DNA of 64,000 nt, taken from Phoronis australis. Lineage: Eukaryota > Animalia > Phoronida. Each line of letters begins with the position of its first letter. Position 1 is the first letter of the stretch. Position numbers and translations under genes: made by a program. The stretch lies in assembly GCA_002633005.1 (NCBI GenBank), contig NMRA01000003.1, positions 2,504,916 through 2,568,915 on the forward strand, written 5' to 3'. The notes beneath the pieces were generated by a model. The model searched no databases. It saw only the letters and a program-made list of their open reading frames with translations, and had not been told where the DNA came from. Positions 5,291-49,135 of the stretch are shown here, piece by piece.

Positions 5291-5436
5291 ATATATATCT
5301 GTGACAACTGCAACAGAATATGCCACTCCAGAATCGGACTTTTCAGCAACAGACGGCGCTGCAATCCAACCACTGACAGACAGTGGGTGCACATCCATTG
5401 TCTCTTGAGACAGATGGCTGTCGACTACCATTACTA
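5291..5436 (+). mobile_element. 3' terminal fragment of an RTE-like LINE (C-terminal zinc-finger remnant plus 3' UTR)
   Basis: Translation YICDNCNRICHSRIGLFSNRRRC resembles the CxxC..SRIGL.SH C-terminus of RTE ORF2; followed by ccattgtctcttgagacaga and a short (ACT)-like tail. Confidence 0.65.
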
Positions 5437-6602: not shown

Positions 6603-9600
6603 TTAGAAGTCTGAGTACTCGGAATCAGTATACACTTGCTGAAATCCTTCTATACCTTCCGAGCCTAAACACTTGAGCAAGTTGTCACGGATACCAGCTG
6701 TCAATACTTTCTTGAAAAACTGTAAAATGCAAATACTTCGATAAAAAATGTAACAGTAATTGATTAACAATTATTCTATTTTTAACTGAGGTGTATTACA
6801 CTGTTTCCATCACAGCTCTGAAACACTGCTAGTAATAAAAATGGTGTGCAAAGTTAAACCAGCCTTCTGTGCTTACACGAACTGTGACGTCTGCCACATA
6901 TACCATCACATCCGCAGATGAAACAACAAAACTCAACATTCATTTGACTCCTGATATTTGACAGCTGAGCTCTAGGGCTAAAGGGCCTCAAAATAAAATT
7001 CCAGATAGAATTACACTTTTGCAGTTGATAGAGTATGAAAAACTTTCATGTGGAAAATTCTTTGATCTCCAAGAGAAAACCCAGTCTTCAAGAAAACGTT
7101 AGTGGAATTTTGATAAGATTCTGCGATCATCAAGTATTTTGAATACAGCTTTATAACTCTGCTACTAATAGTTTAAGAAATTCCATCCTTCATGAAGAAA
7201 TCTTATTACCTTAAATCACTTAATCAACACTCCAAGTAAAGTGCCAACAATTTATAATTAACTAAACAACGAACTTAATAATAAGTGTTTAAAATCAAAG
7301 ACTTTATAAACTCGCCTTGCCTTATGTCACAAAAGCAATTTTTGATTTAGATCATTTATCATTATGTAGTCAGTCTCAAGTTCTTCCTCAGTCAAAAAAA
7401 AGTGATTTCCAGACTTCAGAGACTGCTTGTTATTGTTTGAGTGACACCAGTCTCTACATGTTGACTTGCCACTGCTGGTCACCCTAGTCACCGAGCATGG
7501 TCTCTAGCAATAACAAGCGTGTCATTTATCTGTGCGATCAAAAATCACTTCTCATCTGACTACAGCTACAAGACGGATTCATAGCCACTTAAAGTTGCTA
7601 AGTACGAGCACAAGCAGTAAGTCTAAGTGAAGTGTATTATTCGAGCCTGTACACCACTTGTAAGATTTTCATCACAACTGATGAGCCAAACAGCTGAGAA
7701 CATTTAAAAGATAAAGTGGGGTGTGTCGGGATTGGGATTATCATCATCACTTTCAAGCAGGATTTTACTCAAATGGTTCATGCGCCTAATTCCTGATATA
7801 CACCTACATAATTATTTATAGAGTAAGAAGGCAAGACATTTGGAAAGTCATGTTAAAATTAAATTTTATGTTGTTTACCTGTCAAACACTTACGTCATTT
7901 CCTGGACTAATGCTTTCAATTTCTTTCAAACATTGCTTTTCTGAGGCAAGTTTTAGCTTGACGATGTTATTAAGGACCGTATTTTGACCATGGTCCATGC
8001 TGTAAAACCAAAAAAGGTCTCAATACAGTCAGTTGTAATTCAGTAATTATTAAAAGCTGCATTTTTCACTGTTTAGCTAAATCCAAACAAAAATCGAATT
8101 GGTTCCATAAATTTACTTAGGGCTGTTCCAGTAAAATCCATGTGGGAGGGGGGACGGCAGTAGAAATAAAAATTCATGGGTGGTGGTCTTCAGAAAAAAA
8201 CACAAATTATGGGTGGTCGTTCCTGTAAGAAGTGACACATTAAAAATGGGTGGTATTTTTTGTCCTGTTAATGTTGACAGGTTGGTTACTTCAGCCCTCA
8301 AAACTCGAAACAAGCCAATACAAAAAAGCCCATATTGCTAGTGAACAAACAGAGTGCAATATGTTCACTAAGCCATTAATCAAGTCATGGGCAACTTGAT
8401 TTGAGCCAACTGTTTGTCTGCAGTCCTATTGAATTGAAAAGTTATGCAACAATAAACTGGTGTTAACACATATAAGAAAATTGATGATTTTTAAATAAAA
8501 ATTATGAGGAGTAAGATAAACAAGTTCCAATATTCACTCAACAAAGAAGTATAAAAGATATCGTGGAGACAGTTTGAGTTTCATAGATCCTTATAATTGA
8601 AAAAAATGTTTATTAAAATTATAGACACATGGTGAACAGAGACACCTGGTGGCTGCCAAAAGTATTGCTCACAGGCTACTTTAGTTTTTGACAATATTGG
8701 ACAAGACAACTAGTTCTTGTCTGTCAATCATCTAAGTTTTTAACAGGTCCTCCTGGAGGCAGTTTGTTTGCAAATGTTGGATTTTATGTTTTAACCTATT
8801 AAAAATAATTAAAAACTTATGGGTCATGGGTTGGAGAAATAAATGAAAAATATGGGCGGTGGGTACGAAATAAAAGTGCCTTCCCCTCCCTCCCATACAG
8901 ATTTTGCTGGAACAGCCCTTACTATAATACGATTCTACATCACTCACTAACAAGAACAAAACCATCAGCAACCCAAGAAAATGATTTGAAGATCATCACA
9001 CCCTAAAATAATGCATGTTCTCATTGCCCGTGAGTTGAGTGGCCAGCTCACTCAGCAACAATTCAAACGTAGAGTGAGCATGATAATGCTTTACACCCCA
9101 AATTGCTTCAGTTAAGAATTCGACACTGACAACTAAACAGCAGCAAAATGCCCCTTGAAGAGTTTCACTGCAAAATGAGATGCCAGTCGAAATTGAAATG
9201 TTACCATGATGCCAACTATCAACAGTGTCAAATTTTCAGGAAAAAATGAATCATCCCACAGTGTCACATGATCCCACAAGCACGTATTTGTTCCAAAATA
9301 CGATATACGCCTGACAAGTTCAGATTTCAATTTTGGCAGATATCCCGTTTTACAACTCAAAAACGATGCCTAGTATTCAGGGACAAGAATGGTTCTGGTA
9401 TGAAATTTCACCATATTAACTGGTTGTGCATTTCACACTGCAATATAAGAACTGAAACCGTCAAATGTTACCTTTTAGATCTCACAATATTTATGATGTC
9501 AATGCATGCAAAGTTGAGTGCCAAGATCTCGTGGTCCCAGACAGGATCAGGCAGTAACTTCATATCCATCTGACGATCAGCGTCTAAACCCGCACCTTTC

Positions 9601-12600
9601 ATCAGCTCTTTGACGGCTTTAACGCAGCATGACTCTCTCCACATCTGATCTTCCCAGTTCACCATGCAAGGAACTAACTGATAAAACAGTGGCTTGAAAG
9701 GCAGAGTTCCCATGTGAATGGGATACAAAACAGGTCCGTTTTTTGATGAGCGATGGCGACCTAACGCATGATGAAATTCATCAGTCGTCTTCCTAGTGAT
9801 CGTGTAGACCGAGGTCACTAGAGCTACAACCAGGTCACACTTTTCTAGAGCCGACACCATGTCAGTGTCGCTAGAAATAGTAAACGTAGTCTGTATCTCA
9901 GGCGCCATGCAAGCCAGCAATCTGTTCAGATAAGCAGCATACTTTTCAGTCAAGTTGGTGTAACTTATTCCAATATGGCAATGACGAGTTTCAACAGAAT
10001 TCACGCCACCATCAATGTTCAAAACGTTCACTCTATTCTCGAACAATTGTTGTCTGTGTTGCTCACAAACTTCACTCAGATTCAGTGGAACCTGAAATTG
10101 AAATAGAAAAATATTATTAATAAAAACTTATCAGTAACACAGCAACTGTTCACTGGATTGAACACAGAACTGATATAAACTTCACATAAGGATCTATTTT
10201 TACAGCTCAGCACATACAAAATTGCCTTGTTAAAGTGTCCAATCACATGTAAACTTTACTAAATACTTAGCAACATTGAAATATGGTGTCTTCAACTTCC
10301 CAAAATGAAAAAGCAGACGATAACTAACTTTAATCAAAACCCACACAGTGTCATTATGACAAGTGAAAGGCATACACCGTCTGGTACTTCAACTCAGATT
10401 GAGTTTGAAATGGTTCCTAATCATGTCGATTGCTCGGATCCAAACAAAGGGGACTCAGAACAGTCTTCCTGATATATCAGGCAGTTAGTGTGTCGAAGTT
10501 CATGAACATCTATTGGCAAAGTATAAGATGCCATAGAACAGGACAGCTGGGGTGTAATCTCGGCTCTCAAAACTCGCAGGAAACACGTCAATCTTGGATG
10601 GTGTGGCTCAGGTCACATAGTTAAACAAGTCAATTTACAACATGGTTTACTTTGACTGAAACATGGTGTTCACCCGCCCAGCACAAGAGTAATTCGTTTC
10701 CAAAAAAAGAAGTATACCATACATATATACAGTTGCAAAAGGTTTTACTTTAACAATCATAAAATTAAATAAAATTTCAACTGGTACTGCAATGTATCAG
10801 CCCTCTAGTGTATGACATTTAGTGCAATGGACTAAATATAGATTAATTACTAGCTTGTTAACAATTCTTGCCTCAACAGTACTGAAGACATGGTCATCAA
10901 CAACATCTCTCATCAGCCAGTTCTCAACAGCTGCCAACACTTCATGGATAACTTGAGTGTAATGCTCCCTGCCATCCAAGATGGGAACTTGGGAGGACGC
11001 AAAAGGAATTTCTCCAATCGTTTCTATGGCAATGGGTACCAAGAAAAACTGAGAGTCACCTCCTTTTTCCTGCAATAACTTTAGATTATTAACATTCAAC
11101 ACAACTTGGTAAATAAAATTTTCATTAATTTTGCACATGTCAGGTGTAATTGACAAAAAGTCATGTTTTATTATTCAAAGCCAGATAAACTTGTTGCAAA
11201 TAATGGAAATGTTATCAAATACTGTATTGAGACATCCACTCTGTACAGACTGAGATAGTGATAGACTTAATCTTTATTTTTGTTAGAGAAATTTGACAAA
11301 GTGACATTTCATTTTTTGCCTAGAGCTAAATTAGAGAAGAATTATCATGTATGAAGAAGATGATAAATTAATGCTATGCCTAATATAGTTTACAAGGTTA
11401 AAATTAAGAAAATGACAATGCCAAACCGCAGAAGATAACAAATTAAAACTAAACATTACTAAAAAGTTTTCTGCAGGGGAAACTTACTATGTGTTGTTAT
11501 GTGACAGAGAATTTATTTTGCTGAACTCACCCAACACATGTGTTTTGCCAAGGCGAGATTATACTCCTCAGTACACACCAAAGACTTGATATACTCATTG
11601 GATATGAGGGCCAGCATACACCTGGCGCCATCTACAGCATAGTACAGAGACTGCTGCCATGTGGAACCTGAAGCAAAAGTAAGGTAACCTAGTAAGTTTT
11701 TCCCTGAAACACCAGAATTATAAAGTTTGTATAAAACAAAGGCAACGGAACTATGAACTTGGTTAAACTAATAAAGAAACAGTTTTGAGTCTCAGATATT
11801 GTGTCTTTTTCAGACGCTTGTTAAGAACTGATGAGTTTGAGGAAATGTGTGCAGAACTTTATGCAATACATTACCCTGTGTCTTAAAGCAGTTATCACGA
11901 AGAAAGATGAACCAACTTTTTTTTTCATCAGCGGTGGACAAAGCAGACAAGTGCAAGACATAAATGGGTCACGTAAATGGGTCGTGTAAGACTTATGGAT
12001 GTCATGGTAACAGTAGTTAAGATTATGTAGGACCTTACAAAAATGTCTAATTTTTGCCAACTTCAGAACATCATAAGTCTCCAAAATGGCTCCATGGGTT
12101 TCACATGAAACTTTAACATACTAGGCTACATACACTGTTCTACAAAACAATGAGAGGAATTGTTTTTGAAATATTCTACTTTTGCAGCAAAAGCTATCAA
12201 AAATAGGACTTACATGAATTTTAAGAAAAAAATAAAGTTGCATAAAACGAGAACGAAACAATAATTTAGAAAACTGTAAGATTATATCTTGAACATTTAT
12301 ACTAAGTGAAATTAGGTCATGACATTGATCTGTTGTTTTGTTAAGAATGTACCTTTCGTTTTAGCTAAATTTTCTTAAAAAAGGCACGATCACGTGACCT
12401 AATTAATGGCAAATCCAATTCTGACAAATTTCTACTCTTAGAAAATATAATTTTTCTCTGTGTCAAGTTCTATAGTTTTGTAGATGAGTTGCCAAATGTA
12501 GACTTGTCGATAACGTCCTACATAACATTAAAGTGAAATGACTAATGAAAGACCTGAACGGTAGCTGAGAAGCAAAGTTTTAAAATGTGCTATGACTTGC

Positions 12601-15600
12601 AGGTAATAACTGATTGCAGTTGGGAACCTGAAGACTTTCAGATTCAAGTCATAAACAACAAACCTAGGGTCAGTTCGTTCCTGTCAAAGAAGATCCTCAG
12701 TTCTGGGTTATGTCTTTGAAGGATGGCAAATAACTCAGTTGCATGCTCAGTATTACGATGACTGTAGGAAATGAAGACATCATACTTCATCTGTGAAACG
12801 TTGATTTCTTTGCAAGACTGGTCAGGACAGTGATCATCCATTAGACTGTTCAACATCTCTACAAATATCTTACATCCCGTTGATAGAGGTTCAAAGGAAT
12901 TGTTCAGAATCCTGCAAAATTATTTCACCATTGTAAAAATACAAGTGGTAAATCAAAAATCAAACGTACAATTTTTAACATAAATTCATTTTTTCAGTTG
13001 ATTTGATGAAGACATGCTGATTCAAGGCATGTGTTGTTCAGTAGACAGTCTGCAGTCTGCGCTGTACAGTAAATCTTTTAGCAATTTTAAATAATTTTAC
13101 TGATGTTTCTCAGTTACCAATGGATCTCACTTCAAAAAAAATGTTACATCATCCCCACATTTTTGCTAAATTATTACTTTTTCAAAATCTAAAATTAAAG
13201 AATTAGTACAAGTTACAGTCAATTAAACATAATACCAGTAGACTGAAGCGAATAGATCTTATCAGAGAAAACAGAAAACCATGAAGCAGTATTGACATTT
13301 ACCTGACATCAATGTACTGCACCATGCACATGTAGGTCAGTAGGACAGGGATGGTGTTAATAGGTCAACACATACCTGACATCAATGTACTGCACCATAC
13401 ACATGTAGGTCAGTAGGACAGGGATGGTGTTAATAGGTCAACACATACCTGACATCAATGTACTGCACCATACACATGTAGGTCGGTAGGGCAGGGATAG
13501 TATCCGTGTAGAAAGGTGCCAACATCTCACGCTTGGTTTTACGATCACAGCAGAGGGCAATATTAAACTGTTCCAGACATTCACTAGATTGCAGATAGGA
13601 TGGACTGAGAATAACCACGATCCTACAAGCAAATGAACTCCGACATTAGTTGATCAGATTTTCATATTAACAGTGGTGGTAAAGATAACCAGACAGGTTT
13701 ACAGTGGCGGCAAAGTTAATCAGAGAAAAAGCAGACGTGTAAATTATTAGTTGGAAGTTCTCTGGTTATAAAATGCTAAACTGCCAATGTCACGTATTTT
13801 GCGGACCAATCATTCTGTGCAGAAGACTGCATAAGGAACAAAGTTAACATACATGATAAAGACTCACAACGTCTAACAAGTGAAATTTCATTTTCCATTC
13901 AAATTTCACTGCATTCCTTGGGGGTATTGAGATTACTCTGATAACTGGGGGTGTACACATGTCAAATTGGCCCATTGTGTTGCTGAGGCAGGTTATGACA
14001 CAATTGAGGTTGGTACATATCAAAAAAAAACGAACAGAAGTTGCAATGCACATTTAAATTTCTCTTTTCTTCTCCAGTAGTTATCTGATTTTTGCCATTC
14101 AAATAATGAAAACTTAGGTCAATTTTTAATGACATATTAATTTGGTTTTTATAGTTTGAAGTGTCTGAAATGGCTGGTAAAGAAAGTCGCTACCAACAGG
14201 CACCATGCAGTTATTACCAACACCAATCCCTGTTCCCTAATCCTCAAACAAAAGAACAGGTCATCTAAGTCCTGACACTGTAGTAAGTGCCTGTTGTAAT
14301 CACAACTGGTAAAAAGCATTCATAGTTGCCTACAAGGTCACTAGAAAGTATATAAAAATAATTGCAGGCACTCTGATACACGTTGTACCAGATGTGCACA
14401 GGCCGCTCATGTGGGCCCATTGTACTGATCACCTGAAACCTCTTTAATGCTTTATTAAAATATCGATAAAACCGAGCTGAGATGCTACAGGCCTGACTCA
14501 AGGGTATAGCACTGTGCCCCAGTGGGACTTGAACCCACGACCTTGAGAAAAGGAAGTGGACACTTATCCCACTAGGCGGCACTGCCTCTTTATTACAATG
14601 TACTGCCAGGTAGGCTTTTATCGTTTTTAGGTTCTAGCTAAGATTAGTTTTAAAACAAATTAATATTAAGTTTTAAACATTTCTTCACAGATGTCTCATG
14701 ACGGCGTTCTGTCATTCAGCAACTTTTCCAGACATGAGGGGTTCTGAATGTGCGATAACAACTGGCTCCTTTGTTAAGTGCCCAGCTCAGTCTTTTGCCA
14801 AGTATGACAACAAGCAGGCCAATTATCTCCCAGGCTTCAAAGGGTTACTGAAACCTGGCAGAATGGATTGTCTTAACTTCTATTGCAGCTGGGCGATTTT
14901 GGCGATTCAAAAACTAAACATGGTCAGCATTTGACAAGGAATTCTGAAATGCTATTGGTTTATGTTCAATTACGTTATAACTTAACTTTCATTTTTAGCA
15001 GCATAGCCCAGTCACGCTAGATACGATATGATCGGAAATTAGAGCAATTATTGAACAAAAGAGAGCCGGCCCTCCAACAATAAATGCCAGAATGGAGTTA
15101 ATCAGTCGTGTAAGATACTGGCTACAGGGGTGATCTTCCCAACTTGTTGGGCAATAGGATCGAACAAGTTGGGAGCAATGGGAAAACGCCGTAATGTGAT
15201 CAGACCACACTAACAAGCATTTTGACGTGCCTTTACTTTTAAAACGAAGAGCAGGTTTGAACGCATGTAGTCTAGACTTTACAGTAAAAAAATAAGAAGT
15301 TCCAAGTTATTTAGACAAAGTTCATTACAACACGTCTTACTTAGCACATGAAATCATGACGTTGTAAATCATTTCCTGAAAAGTGTCTTCTTCTTTGACA
15401 GGTAAATGATCTGAGAAGATCTTGATGTCCTGCTTCTCTTGTCTCAACATCTCCATCACCTCAGTGGCCTTGACCTCATCCTGTGGACAGTAGGACAGGT
15501 ATACATCATGGACAATGGGAGGGTCCTGTAAACAGAAAAATATGTGTACATTGTGGACAATGGCAGGGTCTTGAAAACAGACAAGTAAGCATACACCATG

Positions 15601-18600
15601 GACAATGGGAGGGTCCTGTAAACAGACAAACATGTGTACACCGTGGACAATGGAGGAGGTCCTGTAAACAGACAGATAAGTGTACATCATGGACGATGAC
15701 AGGGTCTTACAAACAGACAAACATGTGTACACCAAGGACAATTAGAGGGTCCTGTAAACAGACAAACATGTGTACATCGTGTACATTTGACAGGGTCTTG
15801 TAAACAAGGACGGCTACATCATGGACAATGGCAAGGTCCTGTAAACAAGGATGTTTGTATCATAGACAGTGAAAGGTTGACGTAAATAAGATCACTCATT
15901 GCAATCATTCAAATTGCTCTCAGTAATGCCAATTTCGTAAACGACTATTGAAGAGACAAAAATCTTCAACGGCAAACAATTTGATATTAAATGAAATAAG
16001 TGGCGTGTATATTGCATAAATTATAGTTACAAAACATTTTGATGATATGACAGCTTACCTTGAAATCACTTTTTAGAGATTCCCATTTTGTCTTGAGATC
16101 ACTGAATAATTTGATGAGTCTGATATTCTCTTCATAAATAACTATCTTCAGACATGTGAGAGGTAGACCATGTCTGATCCAATTGGCAGCAGCATTTACC
16201 ATGCCAGACAACATGACATCTGGTGAGAAACGCTGAAAGAGTAATAATTAGCTGCAGTCATCCTGTAGGCGATAAACTTGAAAATGGATTTCATTATTAA
16301 GGTTATGTGCAATCTCATTGACAAGTCTGGGCAGTTCACCAAATATTTACAAAACGATAGAATTATAGCATTTAACTCAACAAAAATATGTTTTCTGAAA
16401 GTAGAAAGCCGACAGGGTTTTATTTTTGGCTTTTAACTATACCAGTTTACAGAATTGGTCATGTTTTAAACAACACTTAGCAAAAACAAGGTGTATTCAT
16501 ACCAAAACATCGATATTAATAGCACGACCAAAGTTGCCACTGACGTAAATGTTCAAAATGAAATCTAACCAATCTCTTAGTTTTCTTATTACAATGATCC
16601 TTTTATTTAACACAACTTTTGAGATTTTCATAATAATCCTAAAAGTCCCAATTTAAAACCAATTCCTTACAGAGTTTTGGAGAACGGCCACCTCTGAGAT
16701 ATGACATTCCAAAATCAGCTAAATCTGGACATTTTTCTACGGTTCCACATTTACCTCAAACTAAAAACAAACGTAATTGCCAAAGACTTAAAACTTAATA
16801 TCTGGACCTATGCCACACAAATATTTGCTTTATTAAATTAATGAAGTCAGACTTCTTCATTATGATCAATGGAGGTCCTCAATCCAACTATTTTATAAAA
16901 GGGTTGAGATTTGAATGATTGTCTACCTGTTGTGACAAGATTAATTGACCAAACACTACTACCAAGTACTTTGCTCATCAGGGTTTGTTCTTGACAACTT
17001 TTTGTAAGCACTAAAAGCTTGAGAATTGCATTAAGTTTTTTGGAGTAAGATGTACCTTAGTTTACACAGGATTACTTAGCGACCATGTACGCAAACATGG
17101 ATTTTTCACTCAAAAAATTTCACAGTCCATCGGCCCACTTCCATTTACCCAATAAGTGGGAGTACCTAATAGCTCACAATAGAAGCTAGATTTAATAGAA
17201 ACTAACATCATACCATGCTAAACAATTGCAAAATGTCATTCTTTAAATAAAAATAATATGTTACCTGTTCTCCTGCAGCTAACAGAGGTGTTATGACTGT
17301 GCTTTCTTGGTTGTTAAAGGCAGGAAACATTGCTCTGAACACCTCACTCACTAGACGAGATGGGTGACCCACCTCACTGGACGGCCTCTCAAAACACAGC
17401 AATCGCCTGTTAAACGGTATGTGCAATGGTCTTAACAAACATCAAAGTTAAGCGTATTCCAGACATCAATTCTCACATTCCGGATTCAACGCTCCTCTTT
17501 TGTGGAGGTACAAAAATGCATTACATGATTAACATAGTTTTCAAAATGCAGGGCCGTTAACACTACTTCTTAACCTAGATGGACACGTGAAGAACATTTT
17601 ATCATACCTCACCTCGCTTTTCACTGTTTTTTATATCTGCATTGCAACTCAGTATGCAATTTGTAAAAACTTTATTGCGATCAGAATGACAATGACTAAC
17701 TAATCTCAATGCAAAACAGTTATTAGTACGGCAGCATTCTACAACTGGGAGAATGCGCACTACGGATGCACAGCATTGTGGGTAAATATCACAGAATCAG
17801 AGAGGACACAGTGGTAATCCAGGAAGTGACCATTACAATTCTACAGATATATCCATTTTGCAAATAGTCATCAAAAGCAAGATTGTGTCATGCATTAAAT
17901 TGTTCATGGTTGTAGCCAACCAATATTTCATTAACCTCGACAGTACTTATAATAATTATGGATCATGATTGGGAGCAATCTTCAGAAAAATAATGACTGT
18001 CAAGACTCATGTACACGTATCTAAAAAAACTAGTTATTTTTCAAAGTTCCTATAGATGAAATTCATCATCATATTTTTGTTAATGCAGATTGAGAAGGAA
18101 CTGAAAAATGTACATGTCAACATTTGAGACAAGATGCTGAATTGCAATTAAACAATTATTTGAAACTACTCCATTGAGTTTTAATCACTCTGGGCTTGGC
18201 AATTCAAAATCCATATGGGGTAACAAACAATCATTTTTTCCAGCCAGGACCAAAAATCATCTATTAAGCTATGTTTACTTACAAAGGCCAACTAGGACAG
18301 TTGTATATAACAAAGAGCAAGGAACACAAAGAACCACTTTCACTGACCCTGTAAGTCAATTTCAAAAAACCTATTGTGTGGGAACACCACCTATGATTTT
18401 CAAGCCATCCACAAAATTCTAAGCCACTGTGTAGACCAGTTTCCCTCTCCAAACCCAAAATTATTTGCACTGAATAAGAATTACATTGACTACCTGAAGG
18501 GCACATTATTAGGCAGTGGTTTGGACCACCAACAACAGAAGTTCTTGACTAAATCCTCCTCTTTATGGCGGGAGAGTTCTTTAACACTGATGTTGAGCTT

Positions 18601-37900: not shown

Positions 37901-40900
37901 AGTTGGGCTTATTTACAGTGGGATGTCTTGGGTCTAGTAATTAATTAATTATTCAACACATGATAATGTTTGTGTGTGCTGTTGTTGCCTAATTCAATAT
38001 ATTGCTAAAAGGCAGTCTCGTATTTGTAGCCCATGTTAAAACATCTTCAGATTGTGTCAAAACTAATTGCTGAATTTGATCTGTTTGCATTCTAAAGCTA
38101 AACAATTGAGTTAGAACTGGAGCAATTATGGAATATGTTTTTCATTGATCAGTTGTTGCTCGTTTCAATAGACATCAAGCATTAACTGTGAAAATGAGGT
38201 GACAGGGCAATAGCCTGATATTTGAGAACCAGTTTGATGCCCGTTATTCAATAGAGAGATCTGGTTCTCAAAGTGCAGGCACGTTGTATCAGACTCATAT
38301 CGTGGAATTGTCATGAGAACTTGACTGGGACCACAGGGGTCTCACGCTCCACTGGCTTATCTACACTAATTTGAAAAGGCTTTGTCCAGTCACGCCTTGT
38401 GGGTCATCAATCGAGATAATGCAAGTTATGTTTCTTCAGGCAGCTCTTATCACCAAACTATGGGTTTCACGGGCAATCAAATGTAATTGGTCAACGCATA
38501 GATCTGTGACCCCAGACCATCCAGAGTTGCCCCATTGACAACTCATGACGGTCTCTCACGACGATTTAACGTTACCGATAATTTGAATTAAAATTCTAGA
38601 GTGTATTATTTAGTTATTAAAATTATTATGATTACTATAAATATTTAAAAGTTTACTGTGCCACTCAACTAAAAGTTATCAGTGACACTTATAAAACAAA
38701 AGAAGAAGCTAAAACTACAGGCTGCAATACAAATAATGAACCATAAAAATAATAAAAAATAAATAATGGAATTAACGTTAAGATCTGCACATACAAATAA
38801 TCTAAACAAGCACACTCCATTCGATTTCGAAGTAAGGACCAAAATTATTAAAAAGCCCCCTCACCTGACTCTTGTTCATACTCGTGGTTAACAACAAATG
38901 TATTGGTGTAAGATGACCTTGTTTTAGATGTTTTGTAACCTGGTCATATTTTCGTCAAAGACAGAATATTACTCTAGCAACTTTGAAGTTTCTGTAATCT
39001 AGATAATATAATGTGAGGTATTCTAAAAAGTAAGTTGTTGCCATAATTCAAATGTGAGGTGATAAATGCCATTACTAAAGACTGATGTTTTACCTAGGGA
39101 TGGGCACTTTACATCATGTTCCTAGTCAAGGAGGGTGTGAGGGATTTGCAAACATCTCACACTGACCGCTGAGGTCAGTTCAGGTCCATCTCAGCTGGAA
39201 AAGTATGTTTTAACTGATTCTGAAAGAATCTATGAGGTAAACAGCTGATGGCCCGGAAAGTGGAAAATTGGAGGTTACAGGAGGATAGACAAAATTAAGG
39301 CAACAAGTTGACCAACCACACAGTTTGGCACATCGCTAAGTGTAATACCTGGCTTTGGGCATGTGCAACGTTATAGCCTAGATAAAGTTTCATGTCATTA
39401 AAATTGGTTGGCTAAAGCCTTAACAGTGTATGTAAATAAGGGATGATCACGGTTCACCTACAATGACATACAGTTTATTACCACTAAAGGGTATGATTAA
39501 TGGACTTGACAGTACAGGTGAATCACTTATTGTTCAATAGGATGTTTGCATTAGACAGCTGTCAGAGCCAACACAGCCAGTATAAATATGTACTGTTGTA
39601 CGTGTTCTTCATGTAAAATGACTTTGATTTTCAGTTTTGTGTGATAAATGTTTACTTAATTCTGAGACAAATAATTGTAGCCGAAATTATCATTTTTCAA
39701 AGCTGATTACCCTGCTGCAAATATTGGAAAGGTTACATTACCAAATGTTTTTAAAATTTATTGTTCACTGTTGCATGTTAGTATCCAGGACTACGTCTGT
39801 TTGCGTCTCACAATGCCGTTGGCTCAATTTCTCAAGACAGAAGCTTTAGATTTTGCTCATATTTTAAACTGAGCATCAACTCCAAGCGCAAGTTAGTTTT
39901 TGTAGGACAGATCAATCTATGTCATGGACTAAAACTTTTATTATTTTTACTTTCGTTGAGAAATTTGACAAAATAAATTTTCAATTGTCTGCCACATTAC
40001 ATTGGTGAAAAATTGCCGTAAGTATCCCCATTTTGAGTTAATTCCGATAATTTCTACATAATATTATTGCTACGTAAGTACTGGACTGCTTTTAAACTTT
40101 TTTATTCTTTTTTATTGCTACAAAGAACATATTAAATACACAGACATGAAAGACAAAATATGCAAGCAGTTCTCACTCTTAACACACCCACACGCACGCA
40201 CGAACCCACACACGCACACGCCCCCTCAACATACCCACCCACTTTAGGACTGCTTTTAAACTTATGGTGTTTTCGCTAATGTAGAGTTACTGATTGAAAT
40301 TGAATCCGATATTTTGCCATCGAAATGCAGGAACCATCGATCAAGTATGATGTTTATCTGTCGTACTGTAAAGAAGACCAGTCAAGGGTGGATGAAATTA
40401 AAAGTTTTCTAGAAAGTGAGAAGAAAGATCTGAAGGTGTTTGCCCAGCATCAAGTCCTTGATGAACAGTCAGAATTCCAAGAGGAGATATTCAATGTTAT
40501 GATCACTTGTGTCAAGTGAGTAATTGTAAAATATAAATTTCTGTTATTTATCTTTACCAAGTGAATTGTGTGTTTTCTATTTGACATTAAAAAAATGTGA
40601 GCGCAGTCCTAGAAATCGCTGTCACATGATCCATGTTCTCATTCACCCCAGTGCATACAGTCACTAGTAAGACCGAGCTTAGAGGAGTAGGAGACATCTT
40701 TGTGCTATGCTCGATTGTCAGCCAGTAAAGCTAGTATTCAAACCCGAGTCTCCCAAATGGGAGTCTGGAGCTCAGACCACTCAGCCACACTGTATCCTCA
40801 CTATTTGACATTGAGACGGGTATCTGTCCTAAAGCGGTCTGACGGTAGCAGTCGAAATAACAAGTCATGTTTTAATTAAAAATTGAACATTGAATTTCCA

Positions 40901-43900
40901 TTATGTATAATATGTGCACACAACATTTTCAAGATCCGAGGCAATGTGTGATCTGGCTCAAAGTGTACTGCAGTACGTCTCGAGTCTGCTCATAACATGA
41001 CAACATAGCAGTGTTGTTACTCTGTCTTCCTTTACCGTGTTCACTAGACAGTGTTCATAAGGAGTGAAATTACCATGTACATGCAGTTAGCAGTAAGACA
41101 GACTGAAGTACATTTACTTGAATTTTCACTTATTGTGATATAAAGGTATGTGATAGTGCATCACACACTTCAGTCTTTGAATTTTCAGTCCCTTCTATTG
41201 TTCAGTTTGCGATTCATTTACTTCAGTCTCCGAAAGACTCCAGCTTAGCTTGTGAAGCAGCATCAAGACAATCCTTTCTACTTGTTTCTGTTGGCAATCT
41301 CATTTCCTTTTTTACGGTAATATTGAGATGACAAGCCCAGAATGATAGCCATAATCTTCACACGGTGACTATTGAATGAAGGGTGACATGCCCTGTAAAG
41401 CCCGTGAGGTGGAACTCAACCAACTGTTCTATGATTTCAGGGTTGTTGCAGTCCTAAGTCCTGCCTATCTGCAGTCTGCTGAATGTCTTGAACAGTTCAA
41501 CATTGCCCTGTGTTGCGATCGGAAGACAAGACGTGAAATGTTGGCCCCATTTTATATAGAGACGATACCAGCTTTACCAACCTACATGTGTATGGTGCAG
41601 TACATTGATGTCAGGTATGTGTTGACCTATTAACACCATCCCTGTCCTACCGACCTACTTGTGTATGGTGCAGTACATTGATGTCAGGTAAATCTTAACT
41701 TCATCGAGAGAGAGTGTGTCTTAATCTTCATCAACCACTTCCTTGTAATGATATCTTATCCAAACAGCTGACATTGCCTACAAATTAAATTAATAAATAA
41801 AAATTTTTATCAAAAGAAGTTGTGTTATTTTTTACTAAAGTTTGTAAATAAGTTAAATAATATGTTTATCGCTGCATCTTGGCTGTTTTTTTTCAGGATC
41901 GGCGAGACATCAGAACCACTTTATGTGGGTTGTAAAATCTTCATTGAACAAGTGGTGAACGTAGCTGAAGAATCCAACAAGAATACTGCAGCCAACACTA
42001 ATAATATCCAGTATGATGTATTCATATCATACTGTCACAGAAACACGGAGTATGCTAACCAGCTGGTCACAATGCTACAGCGTCTCAATCCTGAATTAAG
42101 GATTTTCTTTGACAGAAATGAGCTTGCTTTAGGTAAAACATTTTGATGTTGAGTGGTTTTTTATGTTTCACTTCTTTTTTCTGTCTCAGAAAGTGAGCAA
42201 TTTTGATGAAATCTGAACTTTGGTTTAAATATGATAATACAGTGGAGCCCACTTTATGTCATACCTGATTATTGAATATCCCAGTTGTTGTCAGGAAATG
42301 TCAAAAAACAAATCATTTCTCATTAAATCCATGTACGATATCCTGCATAATCTCATGAATTATTGTCATATTCCCAGATATTGTTAAAAAATCAGCAAAA
42401 CTGATTCTCACTGGTGAACCTAATTTATCTTCTTGTGGGAATTTGGTGCCAAAGAAATTTTGCTTCCTGTTTAGCTCTCTTGCACTCGGACTGTCAACAT
42501 TGCATGATCAGCGTTTAAGAATGGTTACAATCACCGCCAAGTCGGAACCTGCTTAATGCAGTATCCTACGTATCATATTTTGCATTGAAACGGAGGATAT
42601 GACATGAACGGGGGTCAACTGTACTTACAACCCACCATCTTCAACATACGCCCTCTCCTGCTCCTGTCGAGATCAACAAATTTCACACCAGAGGCTGTTG
42701 CAGTTGTCAAATTCATAAAAACGTACAACACCCAACTGGGGCTTCTTAGTAGTGGAACTAGGGAAGCAATCATTAACAACCTACCATGTGTTCTTCCAGT
42801 GAATGCAGTCTGTGTCTTCATTTGGTAGTGTAGTTACTCTTACTGTTGTTTAACCATTGTTCAGATTATTTTGTATCTTAGTTAAACAAACCCGTCTTCT
42901 GTTCTTCCAGTCAATGGTAATGTATGTCTTTATGTGCCTTGTGGTATTATTGCTGTCCTTGATGAACCATTGTTCAGATTATTTTGTGTTTAGTTAAACA
43001 ACCTACCATGTGTTCTTGCAGTGAAGGGTGTTGTTTGTCGTTATGTGCCTTGGACTTGTTACTGTCACTATTGTTTAACCATTGTTCAGATTATTTTGTA
43101 TCTTGTTTAACAAACCTACCTTGTGTTTTTGGTGGAAAGTGCAGATTCTATTCTTGTTTCTTTCTCATTCAATGTTAGTTACAATAATGGTCATTATAAA
43201 TGCCAATATCTTTCCAGCCAGCAGCTGTCAGTGAAGTACTTATATTTAGAAACTAGGCCTATTTCACAACACTTTAAAAGAACCGCCACTGCGTCACCAA
43301 CTCTCCAACACTGATCTAAGCTCCTTTTGTGTAGAAGAGAGCAATTACTGCATGTAAAGAATTGTACGATGACACTTGGCTTACCTCAAAATCCAACTGC
43401 TGCCTGGTGGTTTGCCCAGTTATGTTGCACACGCAGCAGAATTAATGAGGAGTAACTTTTAACAAACGTTCAAGGTTGTGAAAGTCACATTTCTTGTCCA
43501 ATTTCCAAAATTCAAAAACCTTATCATGTGTGCTTTTCACCAACTATTCAAATATGTTATTTACAAACTTTCAAAATGAAAATTCAAAAATACTGTTGTC
43601 GCCCCCAATGTGTTTGTGTCTCATTTTCTAGAGAACAATAACATCAGCAGCCTGAGGCGATTTAATTAAGCACAACAAGATGGTGTCTTTGATCTAAACT
43701 GGCACATTCTGAGGTGCGCAAACTGGCCGAGTTGCCTAATCTCGATCGGTTAGGGTGTTGACATAGGATTCTTTTCATTCATGTCCACTACTAATGACTT
43801 CACTGCTATAAAACACTGGTTGAAATAAACTGCAATATTGTGGACTGGCACTGATGAGTTTTTCAAACTGTTTGGCCTTTGAAATTGAATTATTAAAAGT

Positions 43901-46900
43901 TAAGTTAAAGGATCATTCAAGTTGTTCCCTGAAGAAACACATTGGAAATTACCCAAAACGATGTTATTGATTTTGGCTTGTTAACAAGACTTATTGTGTT
44001 TTCAGTCATACATTTAATAACTCTTTCAGGCCTGGTAGATAATTAGCGGGTGAGTCATTATCATGATGTCAGACAAAAGACTTTGGAAATGGACTATATT
44101 GAAAACTGCTGTCTTCTGGAATTGACCTCAAATGATAGTTCTACGGTCCGTAATAAGTAATTACAGGACACAAAGTACCATTTGCACTTGATCTCATTTT
44201 CATCTATTCACTAGGCAACACTTGGCAGAAGGCTCTGTACTCGGCTGTGGGGGGTGCGCGCTGTATGTTAGCACTCCTCTCTCAGGATTACCTGAAGTCT
44301 CAAGTCTGTGCTGAGGAATACAACCTTGCCTTGGCCAAATACATCTGTTGGGTATGTCTTCCTAACTTTTTGTTTTCAATGGGAATACTGACAGTAACAT
44401 ACAACTGTCTGAATATTTCCAAGTAGAAAGATTGCAGTGCAGGGTTAGGAAGATTGGAGGGAATTCTAGCTCAGGCAACTTTTAAAAGTAGGCTGAGATC
44501 TTAGTGAACAGATTTCCAAATACCGGATCACAGTCTAGTCATTAATATGTTGATATTATAAGTTCTCTATTGAAGGTCATATTTTTGTGGGCGATAACTT
44601 ATGAACTACATAGAGTGGTGCATGTATCCAAAATTTAGATTGCCTAGTTTCTGTGATTCCAAAGGATTTCATCTAATCCTGTATTTCTTTGATATTTAAA
44701 TTGTTAGCACACATTCCTGTAGCACATTGGGCTTTTTGCACTGTCATGATTTTAGTTTTGTCCAGCAGAATGAACAAAAGGTTCGTTCGAAGATCCAGAA
44801 TTATCGTAATCACTCAAGTTACTGTCCATGCTCTCCATACAGCTCTCCAAATTTCCACTTTTAAAATTGGGCTATAGTTCGACCTTCCATCACAAAAGCT
44901 AATTATGATTTACAACATTTATCATAGTTATGAAATTGGTCTCAAGTTGTTCCACAGTTAGTTGAATGTAAAGTCTCTGATATCAGGGCTTTGAATATAC
45001 TGACAGTTCATGCCTGTGCAAAAATGGTGAAAATCTTTCACGCGAGCGGCTCATTCTGTACATAATGTTTGCATTAGAAAATGTTACTAATATATGCTAC
45101 GTAATATGACTGAACTACTGTGCTCAATCACTCCATTCTCTTAAACGAAGCCATTTGCTACACTGTCTACAATCTTCTGGTGTTTTATTTGACCCGTGCG
45201 CATGAAATCTGACGGAGATGTAGCTCCCTTGGTATTGACCGTATCAACATTTTGGGTAACTACCCCTGACTTCTTAAAATAATGTTTTGTTTCGATTAAG
45301 CACCCATGCGAGGTTAATGCCTACCCTCTGATTTTTTAATTCCCTGATTTAAGCGCATTGGGCAGTAAGTTGGATTTGTACAGTCTGTAATACATGTATG
45401 TCAGTTTCATATGTTTTTATGTTTACCGTGTCCGATGTCTAGTGTTGGACATTTGCTCTGTGGATTTAACTCAAATCACATGGTTTATGGTTTATTCCAT
45501 GAGTTGAAGTGCTATAAACTCAAGACTATGAGGCAACTCCAACGCTAACATTTGGGGTATAGTTACCCCAACACCTAAGCTAGCATAAGCCAGACTGTGA
45601 CTAAGTTGCAGTGATCGATACCTAAATTAATAAGCGTGGCATTAGCCATGCAACTGAAAAAATTCTATTCACTAATTTTTCTTATAATACCTCGATTTAA
45701 AAAATTCGATGACGACTAACACATTTTACTTTTTAATTTTGAAAGCAGTCATGTTGGTCGTTTACCTGACATACTGTTTGTTGTTTTTTTTACCTTGAAA
45801 TTAGTATGCTAAACTGGTGCGTTGGTTAAGACCGGAATTATCTCAATCGCTACACATGCAGCCAAGCCCATGAATAGCAACTAGCTTACTTCAACAATCC
45901 GTGACGGCACCATCAAGCCTTTGAGGGTATGAGTAATTCGCTGGCAACTCTGAGGTGAACAGTGCAAACTGGTCCACTTGCGTGTAAATCCTGTTAGCGT
46001 AACATGAGATTTACTTAATGCAACTCGTTAAATTTTCTACAAAACATGATTGAATGAAGCAGTATTACCAAAGTAATTGTTGTGTTTTACTCAGACTGCT
46101 TTTCTGTAGTTGGCACATCATGATCTTTCCAAAATTAATTAACAAATTTCTTGTTTCAGGAGAAGAGCGGAGATGATGGTGAATTTTATTTGATTCCAAT
46201 AGCTATTGAAAGTTTGGCTGAAGTTCCCTACACACTGTTACAAGCATATGTAATAGATGGGAGGCAAGATTTCACAAGAGTTATCACCAGAGTGGCAGCT
46301 GCTGTGAATGGATACGTGACTCATGACAGACTGTCGGATATCGTACTAGTTGACCCTAAAGTAAGGACTAGACGTGTTACCTTGAACAACAGGTCTTGGA
46401 ATTTTTTAAGTCTTCTGTTCATGAGGTAACAGAAGTGTGCAATGGATTTTTTGTGTTTTTTGTCAAATGTATACATTTTAAACATTCCTGCTTCAGTAGC
46501 TATAAAACACAATGTAAATCATGTATCAAACACAATGTAAATCATGTATCAAACACAATGTAAATCATGTATCAAACACAATGTAAATCATGTATCAAAC
46601 ACAATGTAAATCATGTATCAAACACAATGTAAATCATGTATCAAACACAATGTAAATCATGTATCAAACACAATGTGTATCATGGATCAAACAAGACAAT
46701 TGTCAGGGGGTACTAACAGTGCTTTGTCTTGTGCTTGTTTCAGACTCCACTTTGTCTATCGCATGTCATGGAAGAACACAGGAAAAAGTTGTTCTTGGCA
46801 AAGTTGAATGAAATGAATGTTCCAACACCTACATTCCTGGGAGAGCAGTCATATACAGTGGGCCTCAGTTATCATGCTGCCTTGAATCAGTTACATGCGG

Positions 46901-49135
46901 AATATTTGGACAGACTTCTAGTTGCCATGGCACCAACCGTTCGCACTACATTTAACATCAAGAATGAACACGAGTTAGTGACTGCCCTGGAGAAATGTGA
47001 CCTGACTGTCACGCTCCTTTCTCATCCATTTACAATCACCAGGAAGACAACGGATGAGTTCCATCATGCCGTCGGTCGTCATCGCAGTTCACAAACCGGG
47101 CCCGTTCTCTACCCCATCATCATGGATACTCATCTTCTGTTCAATCCGTTGTTCTTTCACCTTGTTCCTTGTGCAGTGTGCTGCGCTGACCAATTATGGA
47201 AAAATGGCGACTGTGTAAAGCATTGGAAAGCCCAACTCAAAAGGCTTTGTTTGGAGCCTGAGTGTAAGACAATGCTGGCTAACATCGCGAATAGACTTCA
47301 GCCCCATGAAGTGCTGGCTCTGAACTTTGCATGCTGGGATATTATAAACATTCTGAAAGAGAAAAGGTATGATTATTTTAGTCATTTCAAGTAATTTAAA
47401 AGTCAACCATCTGTCAAAAAATTGATCTTGTACATGTGTTGTGAATTTGTGATTAGAAAAGCAACGATACGTCTCCTGAAGTGGTTCAGTAGCTGGTTAT
47501 GTAGGACTTTATTGGCATGTCAGGGTATTTAGCCAAATATATACAAAGTTATAGATTTTAAATTAGAAAAAATATATTTTCTGAAAGTAGGAAGCCTGTA
47601 GAATTTTGTTTTTAACATTTGACCGTGGCATGTCTTTTTAGTAAACTTTTAATTAGCAAAAAAGACTGGTACACGGATAGCAACACAGTGATATCAATAA
47701 CATGATTAAATTCTATTTGATACAACTCTTCAAGGTGAGATCATAAAAACACTGTAACAGTTACAATTTTCTATAATATCATTTCGTTTTCGTATTTCCA
47801 ACTTTATTTTTTTCGTGAAAATCATAAAAGTCCCATTTTTGATAGCGCCGTGTGCAAAAGGGGAACATTTTAAGAACAAATTCTTGCAGCGTTTCAGAGA
47901 ACAGCGCATCAAAACATCTGAAAGTTTCATATGATTCCAGTTAGTTGCTTCTGAGATATGATGTTGTGAAGTTAGCCAAATTTTGCCATTTATCCAGGGT
48001 CCTATGCAACCTTACAACAAATTGATTTTTGATTGTCAGTTTGCAAGTTATCTTGACGCGAGAATGTTACACAACACTATCTCTAACTTGGTCTTTGTTC
48101 TTTTGTTGTTGCCTGTATTTATCAGTCCCTTTTGTTTTTTCATGTGTCACATGTACCTGTGAGAACATTTCAAAATTTCCAGTTTGATTTCTGTTTTGTT
48201 ACCTGATTTCATTCTTGATTTATGCACTTCCAGTGAGAAAAGTGAGCAGAGGCAAAACATCGTGCTTCAAGACATCCTGAGAATTAATCTGGAAAACAAT
48301 GATTGCGAAAGTCCCCAGTATGTACTGCCAGATGACAAGGTCAGTTGAATAACCAGCATTCACCACTACTCTGTGGTTTCCGATTTACTAAGACTGGTGT
48401 GGGCATACGCGTACACGTGTGCGGGTGTGTGCGCGCCTGTGGAAGCATTTAATTCATGGAACATTTTGAACAATGTTCATTAAGAAGGTCGTAATTGAAT
48501 TTGAAAATTGTATGTGAAAATCCCTTTTGGAACCAAAGAACCGTACCTTGATGTCGTAAGGGTGCAGCCATTTCGATTCACCACCGGGTGCGCCCTCTGT
48601 CGTAGAGTAAAACCATGAAAACAGAGCTGGGGATTCCCTTATGTCTGGGGGAATCCCGTAACATATCCGTGAATACATCGTAGTAGGTAGATCAAGTCCA
48701 GGATCTGTTTTATGACAGTATTTTCATCTCCTAAATGGAACCCAGTGATTTACATAGTGTCATAATTGAATTTATTTGTGATAAGGTCTTATTTTGAGAG
48801 TTCTTTAGTTTGTGACAAATCTAATTTTCCCTGTCAGTGAGTTTGTTAGGCAGCTTCAAGTATTTGTCAAGGAATCTTAAGGTTCCTTTACTTTTCAGTT
48901 CTACAAGAAACTTGTGTTTAGTGAAGGTGACATTTTGGAACAAATGGAGTCTTTGGAAGTTGTAAGTTCAGAACCAGGACAAGATGAGAGTCAGGGAGGA
49001 GGGTCAGAAGTTCCATGTGAGAAGACAGCAGCGGAATCTGATGCTAAAGCGACGGAAGCACAGCAAAGTGAGAGAAGAAATGGATGGGAAGTGTTGAAAA
49101 AGCGTAAGAAGTCACAGGCATGTCTCATTATATAA
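31996..49135 (+). CDS. Gene B: macro-like domain + three tandem TIR (TIR_2-type) domains + polybasic-CaaX tail, ~836 aa, 12 coding exons
   Basis: Exons: 31996-32134, 33969-34122, 34448-34589, 37718-37894, 40331-40515, 41441-41614, 41897-42132, 44215-44351, 46160-46360, 46744-47366, 48234-48339, 48899-49135; all GT-AG, phases consistent, 2511 nt. Motifs: EIQLLFGDITKL..VDVIMVSAFPGDY..TPLLAAGDQGF (macro); YDVYLSY..SPAYLQSAECLEQ; YDVFISYCH..SQDYLKSQVCAEE; VGLSY..SHPFTITRKTTDE; C-terminus KKRKKSQACLII*. Confidence 0.88.
33236..33492. repeat. 52-bp minisatellite, 5 copies, intron 1 of gene B
   Basis: Unit acataccattgtaatggtgcgtaagcatggcacaaatcaagatgctatgcaa. Confidence 0.92.
34614..34708. repeat. 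Small palindromic element (~95 bp); partial second copy at ~38215-38295
   Basis: tctgatataacgtgcccgtattttgagaaccggttt ... aaactggttctcaaaattcgggcacattatatctga are imperfect reverse complements. Confidence 0.7.
35830..37613 (+). mobile_element. Non-autonomous Helentron/DINE-1-like (HINE) element with internal ~440-bp tandem repeats, in intron 3 of gene B
   Basis: T-rich 5' end with stem-loop (cacatat..atatgtg), (GTCC)n microsatellite, ~4 internal repeats (ggatc..gtgtgcccc.tagtggcaatt at ~36030, 36478, 36914, 37359), subterminal tgtgggca, 3' end gcattgctcttgtt; inverted full-length relative at 59596-61190. Confidence 0.75.
38306..38568. mobile_element. MITE family 2, copy 2 (inverted relative to 26448-26706)
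   Basis: aattgtcatgag...ttgactgggacc.caggggtctcac.ctccactg...ctctcacgacgatt. Confidence 0.7.
40630..40795 (-). mobile_element. Degenerate tRNA-derived SINE
   Basis: Minus strand gtggctgagtggtctgag (A-box) ...cgggtttgaatac (B-box-like). Confidence 0.5.
41580..41693 (+). repeat. 73-bp duplication of the exon 6 end plus donor in gene B, near-identical to gene A 13297-13410
   Basis: Donors at 41615 and 41688; 3 mismatches in 114 nt versus gene A by manual comparison. Confidence 0.9.
42770..43135. repeat. ~113-bp degenerate tandem repeat, 3 copies
   Basis: aaccattgttcagattattttgt at 42852, 42965 and 43078. Confidence 0.75.
46505..46690. repeat. 23-bp minisatellite, ~8 copies, just upstream of exon 10 of gene B
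   Basis: Unit aaacacaatgtaaatcatgtatc. Confidence 0.92.

Follow-up and report, generated by a model that had tools for sequence, protein, structure and literature searches.

In the animal protein SARM1 the TIR domain is gated by a fused nucleotide-sensing domain. Type II Thoeris is encoded by two genes, one for the TIR protein ThsB and one for the transmembrane macrodomain protein ThsA, and employs the ADP-ribose (ADPR) derivative His-ADPR. Here we describe two genes, A and B, in a 64,000-nt window of Phoronis australis DNA (contig NMRA01000003.1, 2,504,916 to 2,568,915, assembly GCA_002633005.1; all coordinates are positions in this window), each of which encodes an N-terminal macrodomain and three TIR domains in a single chain. 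The proteins resemble type II Thoeris in the combination of a catalytic-Glu TIR with a macrodomain in one functional unit, for which an ADPR-type ligand is expected from the accessible parts of the Thoeris reports (10.1101/2024.01.03.573942, PMC11204291). Unlike type II Thoeris, however, they are single chains without a transmembrane effector, their macrodomain belongs to another family, and their prokaryotic relatives score above no Thoeris model cut-off. The interpretation given in an earlier note on this DNA is supported in part. Its proposal that the genes form a type II Thoeris-like system is weakened, as the macrodomain is not of the ThsA type and both the transmembrane effector and the two-gene layout are missing; direct homology to single-chain prokaryotic macro-TIR proteins, rather than analogy, appears to be the better bacterial link. 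Like SARM1/TIR-1, the window proteins contain an animal NADase-type (NAD-cleaving) TIR, which a nucleotide-sensing domain in the same chain would gate, but they lack the ARM and SAM domains of SARM1 and have instead a macrodomain as putative sensor, three unequal TIRs and, in gene B, a CaaX tail.

The macro and TIR motifs of the window fall in two clusters, one on each strand. Gene models, built by cross-comparison of both genes and a splice-site search, reveal a head-to-head pair of paralogues, gene A on the − strand (31484-6603, 797 aa) and gene B on the + strand (31996-49135, 836 aa), each with 12 coding exons in an open frame and with identical intron phases, so that the two intron-containing macro-TIR genes proposed earlier are confirmed, at the positions given for them. 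All introns have GT-AG boundaries, except the GC-AG intron 9 of gene A. The two proteins are 55% identical, and the start codons are separated by 511 nt. A model with 11 exons was rejected, as its frame was broken after exon 10; an exon 11 of 106 nt was then located in both genes, and is backed by RNA reads in gene A. Proteins that were annotated independently in Owenia, Tubulanus and Lytechinus can be aligned with the window proteins over 700-840 residues, with 37-41% identity, so that the exon chain is not a product of chance. The features of the locus are as follows.

6603..31484, − strand: gene A coding span, 12 exons, 797 aa; macrodomain, TIR1 (predicted pseudo-TIR), TIR2, TIR3 and helical tail, no CaaX
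31346..31484, − strand: gene A exon 1, macrodomain start, GDIT Asp27 at 31406; stranded coverage in 2/3 raw-read runs
18494..18647, − strand: gene A exon 2, macrodomain loop 1 and DL..C.WS insert; joint with exon 3 in reads
17265..17406, − strand: gene A exon 3, macrodomain, TPLLAAGEQ loop 2; RNA reads
16059..16232, − strand: gene A exon 4, macrodomain end; joined to TIR1 exon 5 by reads
15341..15525, − strand: gene A exon 5, first half of TIR1; RNA reads
13449..13622, − strand: gene A exon 6, second half of TIR1; Gln283 at the catalytic position (13570)
12664..12911, − strand: gene A exon 7, linker and TIR2 start
11531..11667, − strand: gene A exon 8, TIR2 catalytic-position Glu440 at 11566
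10872..11069, − strand: gene A exon 9, TIR2 end; GC donor, 29 reads over the intron
9472..10091, − strand: gene A exon 10, degenerate TIR3, Glu622
7894..7999, − strand: gene A exon 11, 106 nt; RNA reads
6603..6719, − strand: gene A exon 12, coding part; 3′ untranslated region (UTR) on to at least 4800
31485..31995, no strand: spacer between the start codons, 511 nt; probable bidirectional promoter and 5′ UTRs
31996..49135, + strand: gene B coding span, 12 exons, 836 aa; architecture of gene A plus a polybasic CaaX tail; stranded coverage only
31996..32134, + strand: gene B exon 1, macrodomain, GDIT Asp27 at 32074
33969..34122, + strand: gene B exon 2, macrodomain
34448..34589, + strand: gene B exon 3, macrodomain
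37718..37894, + strand: gene B exon 4, macrodomain end
40331..40515, + strand: gene B exon 5, TIR1
41441..41614, + strand: gene B exon 6, TIR1; Gln284 at the catalytic position (41493)
41897..42132, + strand: gene B exon 7, TIR2 start
44215..44351, + strand: gene B exon 8, TIR2 Glu437 at 44316
46160..46360, + strand: gene B exon 9, exon of the spliced model
46744..47366, + strand: gene B exon 10, degenerate TIR3, Glu620
48234..48339, + strand: gene B exon 11, 106 nt
48899..49135, + strand: gene B exon 12, lysine-rich run and terminal CaaX; predicted prenyl anchor

Both genes are transcribed at a low level in three stranded raw-read RNA runs, which were chosen by species label and of each of which ~18-19% was read and used. 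For gene A, reads were mapped at 97% likeness to the stretch 4800-18800, with intron 1 lying outside. Its exon bins are covered on the expected strand in this stretch, and 9 of the 10 introns are bridged by stranded reads, including the GC-donor intron 9 (780 nt; donor 10871-10872), spanned by 2+7+20 = 29 reads. The joint between macro exon 4 and TIR1 exon 5 is present in all three runs (2+1+7 = 10 reads), in agreement with the earlier expectation that RNA joins macro and TIR exons in one transcript. The exon 7-8 joint is absent among the joints listed (one row of the table is not shown), and the 3′ UTR reaches at least 4800. For gene B, mapped at 88% likeness, exon coverage is low but on the expected strand. 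No exon joint of gene B is found among the 15 joints listed, all of which are repeat-derived, because intronic repeats swamp the joint table. These repeats (36020-37142 and 34600-34712; a 436-nt tandem unit and a short dispersed repeat) draw very many RNA reads from other loci.

Structure models confirm a macrodomain fold for the N-terminal ~197 residues. For the Owenia orthologue, modelled with AlphaFold2 at a mean pLDDT of 77.5, the top Foldseek matches are macroH2A1.1, PARP14, YmdB and Af1521, with TM-scores of about 0.7, and the macro domain of a bacterial member likewise matches macrodomains at ~0.7. The model of this bacterial domain (pLDDT 89.6), on which the VIA Z-scores are based, superimposes on O. 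iheyensis MacroD with a Z-score of 17.6 and 2.6 Å rmsd (root-mean-square deviation) for 172 aligned residues, while PARP9, PARP14, Af1521 and macroH2A give Z-scores of 16-17. EcThsA ranks 33rd (Z 11.1, rmsd 3.5 Å, 173 aligned residues), and is no closer than leucine aminopeptidase N-domains, which score 11-13. According to the accessible part of PMC11204291, the nearest neighbours of EcThsA are the same central macrodomains, with Z-scores of 14-15, and a special tie of the family to ThsA is therefore not indicated. Likewise, ThsA_Macro (PF20016) gives no Pfam match in any of the 10 members scanned. The macro-like fold claimed earlier is thus retained, but it is not of the ThsA type. In the ESM Atlas a ThsA cluster appears at rank 23 with 0.85, which is a lead only, as every match is below 0.9. 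A profile search matches PARP14 (E 5.7e-6). Pfam Macro finds no match in 4 animal orthologues, so that InterPro-type scans miss the domain, and matches 3 of 10 mixed members (best E 4.6e-5). With the MacroD, Af1521 and YmdB hydrolases and the macroH2A, PARP9 and PARP14 readers the family has in common its fold, at Z-scores of 16-17.6, and an adenine motif, GD(I/L)T. In contrast, sequence identities to these macrodomains are 13-20%, their loop 1 (NAAN...GGGVDGAI) is replaced by SAFPxDYxPTxxS(V/L)IGAL, and the family has an additional DLR..CW.S insert and is nearly always tied to a TIR.

Both window genes have the adenine-binding Asp27 of the GD(I/L)T motif, which is present in 30 of the 33 animal domains and in 211 of the 222 on the prokaryote side. 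All 255 macro domains have Ser43 and Ser/Thr55, and Tyr49, Asp78, Trp86, Glu104 and Gly143 are conserved at or near 100% on the animal and prokaryote sides; because of this (near-)invariance the pocket appears conserved and family-specific, and is probably that of a reader, possibly that of a new enzyme. In an alignment to one template, L117, Pro46, Ile57 and Gln145 stand at the positions of the Asn and Asp on which MacroD hydrolases rely for catalysis and of their aromatic loop 2 residue, a Tyr. A predicted complex of the macrodomain with TIR1, made without the use of alignments, scores 0.19.

A family TIR profile finds three TIRs in the proteins of both genes, TIR3 only weakly (~20 bits), and TIR_2 is matched three times in 3 of 4 full-length database orthologues. 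The motifs YDVFISY, IFFDR and S..Y..S..C..E, which the earlier note had ascribed to all three TIRs, each occur, like all the other motifs quoted there, exactly once per protein and therefore belong to TIR2 only; the number of domains stands, the shared motifs do not. The catalytic Glu position is located in helix αC (C+3) and was checked against TLR2, and residues at this position were counted in 28 animal three-TIR proteins. In TIR1 it is occupied by Gln in 23 and by Glu in 2 of the 28 proteins, with Gln in both window genes, and TIR1 is predicted to be catalytically inactive. TIR2 has Glu in 27/28 proteins, with one gap (Glu440 in gene A, Glu437 in gene B), which supports its classification as a catalytic-type TIR and putative NADase. 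TIR3 has Glu in 23/28 but is degenerate, with a mean of 30 bits versus about 100 for TIR1 and TIR2. The view of the TIRs as Glu-bearing NADase-type domains hence applies to TIR2, fails for TIR1 and is qualified for TIR3. In a TIR-only tree TIR1, TIR2 and TIR3 form three clades, the branching order of which is not resolved. In annotated X2 isoforms of sea urchins (P0021, P0022, P0023) the stretch from the middle of TIR1 to the middle of TIR2 is missing, resulting in a chimeric TIR1/TIR2 with Glu that could be an activating splice form.

A CaaX-type C-terminus (Cys at −4) is present in 18 of the 28 three-TIR members, compared to a Cys frequency of 1% in the tails; some of the ten members without CaaX are partial records. 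Gene B combines CaaX with a lysine-rich run. Gene A has no CaaX, and a search downstream of it for an alternative CaaX-ending last exon found none. The cytosolic location proposed earlier is not supported for gene B, whose protein is probably lipid-anchored through a predicted prenylated CaaX rather than freely cytosolic. Pfam scans give no matches to LRR, death, ARM or SAM domains. The N-terminus is not hydrophobic (hydropathy about 0), the macrodomain begins at residue 1, and the peak 19-residue hydropathies of 1.57 (A) and 1.73 (B) are located near aa 255-257, within TIR1; neither the Owenia model nor the hydropathy profile contains transmembrane helices fused to the macrodomain. It is evident that the proteins, without LRR, transmembrane segment or death domain, are not TLR or MyD88, as had been stated. 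The family TIR profile nevertheless scores best against the TIRs of TLR2, MAL and MyD88, with a weak match to SARM1 (E 3.5e-4).

The prokaryotic counterpart is a single chain of ~340 aa, consisting of a macrodomain followed by one TIR_2 domain. It is collinear with macro+TIR1 of the animal proteins, including the LPTYM..QY.DCR tail, and the best identities between the macrodomains of genes A/B and those of prokaryotes are 41-46%. By sequence comparison, the animal macro+TIR1 unit is homologous to the stand-alone prokaryotic macro-TIR. In GTDB (185,579 genomes) 153 of 202 pattern-matched stretches encode a macro-TIR relative. The 79 loci that were fetched are distributed patchily over 13 named phyla, archaea included, and the gene is single-copy in 39 of 40 genomes searched. 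Profile matches amount to 347 clusters at E≤1e-30; at 1e-10 their number rises to 882, among which there are probably other macrodomains as well. A TIR follows the macrodomain in 200 of 222 prokaryote-side domains, many of which are from unnamed metagenomic proteins placed by the tree, and 186 of the 206 aligned prokaryote-side TIRs have the catalytic Glu. In a scan of 60 longer proteins the cassette follows Nudix (5 proteins), Hsp70, kinase, FHA, pYEATS, GT4, TPR-S-patatin, extra TIR or type VI secretion system (T6SS) sheath domains, or precedes CHAT/NB-ARC or OGFr-N; these fusions make it more likely that the cassette is an output unit that moves between proteins than that it is a fixed sensor. 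A search of the 79 loci for a conserved partner gene found none that recurs (the largest neighbour cluster comprises 8 loci, at scattered positions). The animal unit probably derives from a prokaryotic conflict cassette, with transfer from prokaryotes to animals being inferred from the wider prokaryotic diversity.

Several prokaryotic members show unusual arrangements. In P0106, P0111, P0145 and P0077 the VipA/VipB T6SS sheath is fused to macro-TIR, in some with kinase, FHA and second TIR domains, which is possibly a sheath decoy or an assembly-triggered TIR switch. Myxobacteria-related members (P0027, P0028, P0029, P0030, L058) combine a degenerate TIR start with a C-terminal helical domain, without a Pfam match in P0027-P0030 and L058, that we presume to be effector-associated-domain-like. 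Ca. Uabimicrobium has a tandem macro-TIR pair (L051:7947-10428, L073:8001-10421), a parallel to the paired animal genes.

Named animal matches include cnidarians (Rhopilema, Hydractinia, Porites), an annelid, nemerteans, a brachiopod, a flatworm, bivalves, a gastropod, Octopus, echinoderms and hemichordates. Chordates, ecdysozoans, sponges and protists are absent from the named matches of these searches, which were limited by word or covered the best 150 of 1323 matches. The 33 animal macrodomains form one clade, with a FastTree support of 0.993 (255 rows) and an SH-aLRT of 100 in a quick, midpoint-rooted IQ-TREE run on 70 of the 255 rows. The clade roughly tracks animal phylogeny, with genes A and B as sisters among spiralian sequences. 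The family is an ancient invertebrate one, extending from cnidarians to echinoderms.

Neighbours of the prokaryotic genes were scanned at 75 loci with a called macro open reading frame (ORF), for at most 2 ORFs per side and ORFs up to 520 aa; two neighbour rows that are fragments of the focal gene were dropped, leaving 279 neighbours. The control consists of 127 ORFs in 34 arbitrary stretches of the same genomes, and the PADLOC cut-off is 1e-20. Specific PADLOC matches are found for 20/279 neighbours versus 2/127 control genes (Fisher p 0.019), after exclusion by judgement of generic methyltransferase, regulator and kinase matches (6 neighbours, 4 controls). The models matched are BrxE, BrxH, DrmD, DpdE, DruE, ZacAB, AbiU, LmuA, MTase II and PDC, and some macro-TIR genes are inserted in BREX, DISARM or Dpd-like islands. 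Pfam neighbours also include SIR2, nSTAND1, SLATT and Schlafen, for which there is no matched control. The association with defence is modest, and suggestive rather than decisive. PADLOC at 1e-20 and the NCBIfam cut-offs place the prokaryotic macro-TIR proteins in no known system, and their TIRs score below the ThsB cut-offs. At two Chloroflexota loci (L020:1876-10707, L038:2262-10587) an N-terminally extended macro-TIR gene, Nudix-macro-TIR in L020, has a gene for a DruE-like helicase on one side and one for a DpdE-like helicase on the other, all on one strand, in what looks like a multi-gene defence operon.

Within the animal genes, several exon boundaries are duplicated. In both paralogues a tandem duplication with a unit of 73 nt has carried the end of exon 6 and its donor site into intron 6 (13297-13498 in A, 41580-41693 in B), yielding spare donor sites. 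Here 114 nt are 97% identical between A and B, whereas the other exons are 33-74% identical, which makes recent gene conversion between the inverted copies likely. A 45-nt tandem array at 15495-15847 consists of copies of the acceptor and start of gene A exon 5, of which the reads choose the predicted acceptor; similar boundary duplications occur at 37637-37739 and 18715-19000. In the first intron of gene A (12.7 kb) a 50-nt minisatellite (21320-22064 and 24060-24212) flanks an assembly gap of 192 N. Gene B is adjoined by exons of MCU (mitochondrial calcium uniporter; 51723-55986, − strand), identified by Pfam. The 3′ UTR of gene A points towards an exon at 1005-1286 (+ strand) without a library match, which we take to be UNC-45-like, and an ORF at 63660-63998 (+ strand) without a Pfam match presumably resembles the RNase H end of a non-LTR retrotransposon.

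To explain these features, we tentatively favour, with a confidence falling somewhat short of even, the prediction that the window proteins are ADP-ribose-gated, NAD-cleaving immune or cell-death switches. This prediction builds on the observed architecture, the splicing and expression of gene A, the macro fold, the homology, the single animal clade and the Glu pattern. The macrodomain, with its adenine-binding GD motif and without the MacroD hydrolase residues, would read an ADP-ribose species (free, cyclic-derived or protein-linked), and ligand binding would promote assembly of the TIRs, with the Glu-less TIR1 as a scaffold. TIR2, perhaps with help from TIR3, would cleave NAD+ to ADPR or a product of the cyclic ADP-ribose (cADPR) type, acting as a signal or through loss of NAD+, and the macrodomain could in turn respond to this product. 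CaaX members such as gene B would act at the membrane, while gene A would be soluble or recruited by its paralogue. The macro-TIR unit would have entered animals, probably once, before cnidarians and bilaterians separated, and its TIR would then have been duplicated and the copies have divided the labour between them. The wider proposal, of a prokaryotic single-chain immune reader-writer of an ADPR-type signal that was acquired once by early animals, expanded in its TIRs to a pseudo-, an active and a degenerate one, prenyl-anchored at membranes and kept from corals to sea urchins as an innate-immunity arm under nucleotide control, is rather doubtful.

A number of observations weigh against the switch and its proposed origin. 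TIR1 still has a Glu at the residue that precedes the catalytic position, Asp27 is missing from three cnidarian members, and the loop 1 alignment relies on the single canonical template L117, with an HH probability of 13% (E 5e-4). The invariant polar residues Ser43, Asp78, Arg80 and Glu104 could build a new catalytic site. The animal clade is nested or sister depending on whether FastTree or IQ-TREE is used, and because of this and the midpoint root the tree does not settle the direction of transfer. The loci in the neighbour enrichment are not independent; counted per locus it is 13/75 versus 2/34 (p 0.14), with generic matches included it is 26/279 versus 6/127 (p 0.16), and 62/75 loci have no specific PADLOC neighbour.

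Alternatively, and just as compatible with the domain layout as the feed-forward amplification suggested in the earlier note, the macrodomain may be a brake or eraser, which destroys or sequesters the TIR product, or strips ADP-ribose from protein, and thereby sets a threshold or shut-off. Such a role would be consistent with the MacroD hydrolase as nearest fold, with the many invariant polar residues, Glu104 among them, with the Nudix domain ahead of the cassette in 5 scanned proteins, and with the prediction, in the accessible part of PMC9503650, that macro domains of TIR anti-phage systems regulate by targeting cADPR. However, the family has other residues in place of the catalytic Asn and Asp of MacroD, of its GGG loop and of the aromatic residue in loop 2, and the G-D/N-Q-G loop 2 resembles the reader loop of PARP14; we regard a brake as fairly unlikely. 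It is also unlikely that the animal protein has come to serve Toll/MyD88 signalling without enzymatic activity, as a multi-TIR adaptor or inhibitor that is tethered to the membrane and whose macrodomain recruits ADP-ribosylated partners. Retention of the TIR2 Glu in 27/28 proteins from cnidarians to echinoderms, and the existence of homologues in prokaryotes, which have no Toll pathway, argue against an adaptor, in spite of the lost TIR1 Glu, the degenerate TIR3, a CaaX anchor that fits a sorting adaptor and the profile scores against TLR2, MAL and MyD88; amphioxus TIR-only adaptors do inhibit MyD88 signalling (PMC6043800, in the part accessible).

A strict one-chain circuit of the type II Thoeris kind, in which the TIRs write a His-ADPR-type signal that is read by their own macrodomain, is quite improbable. 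The putative writer and reader are fused in 200/222 prokaryote-side proteins without a conserved partner gene, and the family-specific distal-ribose loop could suit a conjugate, but the ThsA Z-score of 11.1 is no better than the 11-13 of leucine aminopeptidase N-domains, ThsA_Macro is matched in 0/10 members, a membrane effector is lacking, the TIRs fall below the ThsB cut-offs, and nothing points to His-ADPR, with TIR1 predicted inactive and TIR3 degenerate. A non-immune sensor of NAD/ADPR stress or degeneration, with a SARM1-like output unrelated to infection, would agree with the low-level transcription of both genes in all three runs and with the location of most prokaryotic loci away from known defence genes. 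Given the patchy prokaryotic spread, the conflict-type fusions and the insertions into BREX, DISARM and Dpd-like islands, we consider such a sensor very improbable.

Families of cytosolic TIR proteins with conservation across invertebrates have reportedly been numbered by Gerdol et al. 2017 as ecTIR-DC, and the macro-triple-TIR family may be one of these. The macro-TIR family was not found in the literature searched, although Gerdol 2017, Burroughs 2015, Burroughs and Aravind 2020 and preprint supplements may mention it; within this literature the statement that it is not a characterised animal family holds. The accessible parts of PMC8195603, PMC7159879, PMC13142454, PMC5549309, PMC6043800 and PMC9503650 do not describe it, that of 10.64898/2025.12.03.692087 mentions macro only for type II Thoeris, and the placozoan TIR architectures in the accessible part of the PMC6321704 supplement include none with a macro domain. 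Non-TLR animal TIRs make cADPR in a Glu-dependent manner, as described in the accessible part of 10.64898/2026.04.20.719644, from the main text of which 'macro' is absent.

Within the literature searched, the family is an undescribed variant of TIR-nucleotide immunity, as far as its predicted function is concerned. The family bears on what activates the cADPR-making non-TLR TIRs of animals and on what reads their products, as a candidate ADPR reader is here united with a candidate NAD-cleaving TIR in a single conserved animal protein, and as there is a compact prokaryotic counterpart of 340 aa that is directly testable. It defines a macrodomain family that is missed by Pfam in the animal proteins scanned; the prokaryotic single-chain homologue, the loss of the TIR1 Glu with retention of that in TIR2, and the CaaX tail are new beyond the earlier note. 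Like cGAS-STING, TIR-STING and Dictyostelium TirBCD (PMC13142454, in its accessible part), and like SIR2/SIRal, macro-TIR is a unit common to prokaryotic conflict genes and candidates for eukaryotic immunity, but unlike these it is a two-domain unit, with a candidate function on both sides. With macro-TIR, the few immune parts that prokaryotes and animals have in common would be joined by a module of two domains.

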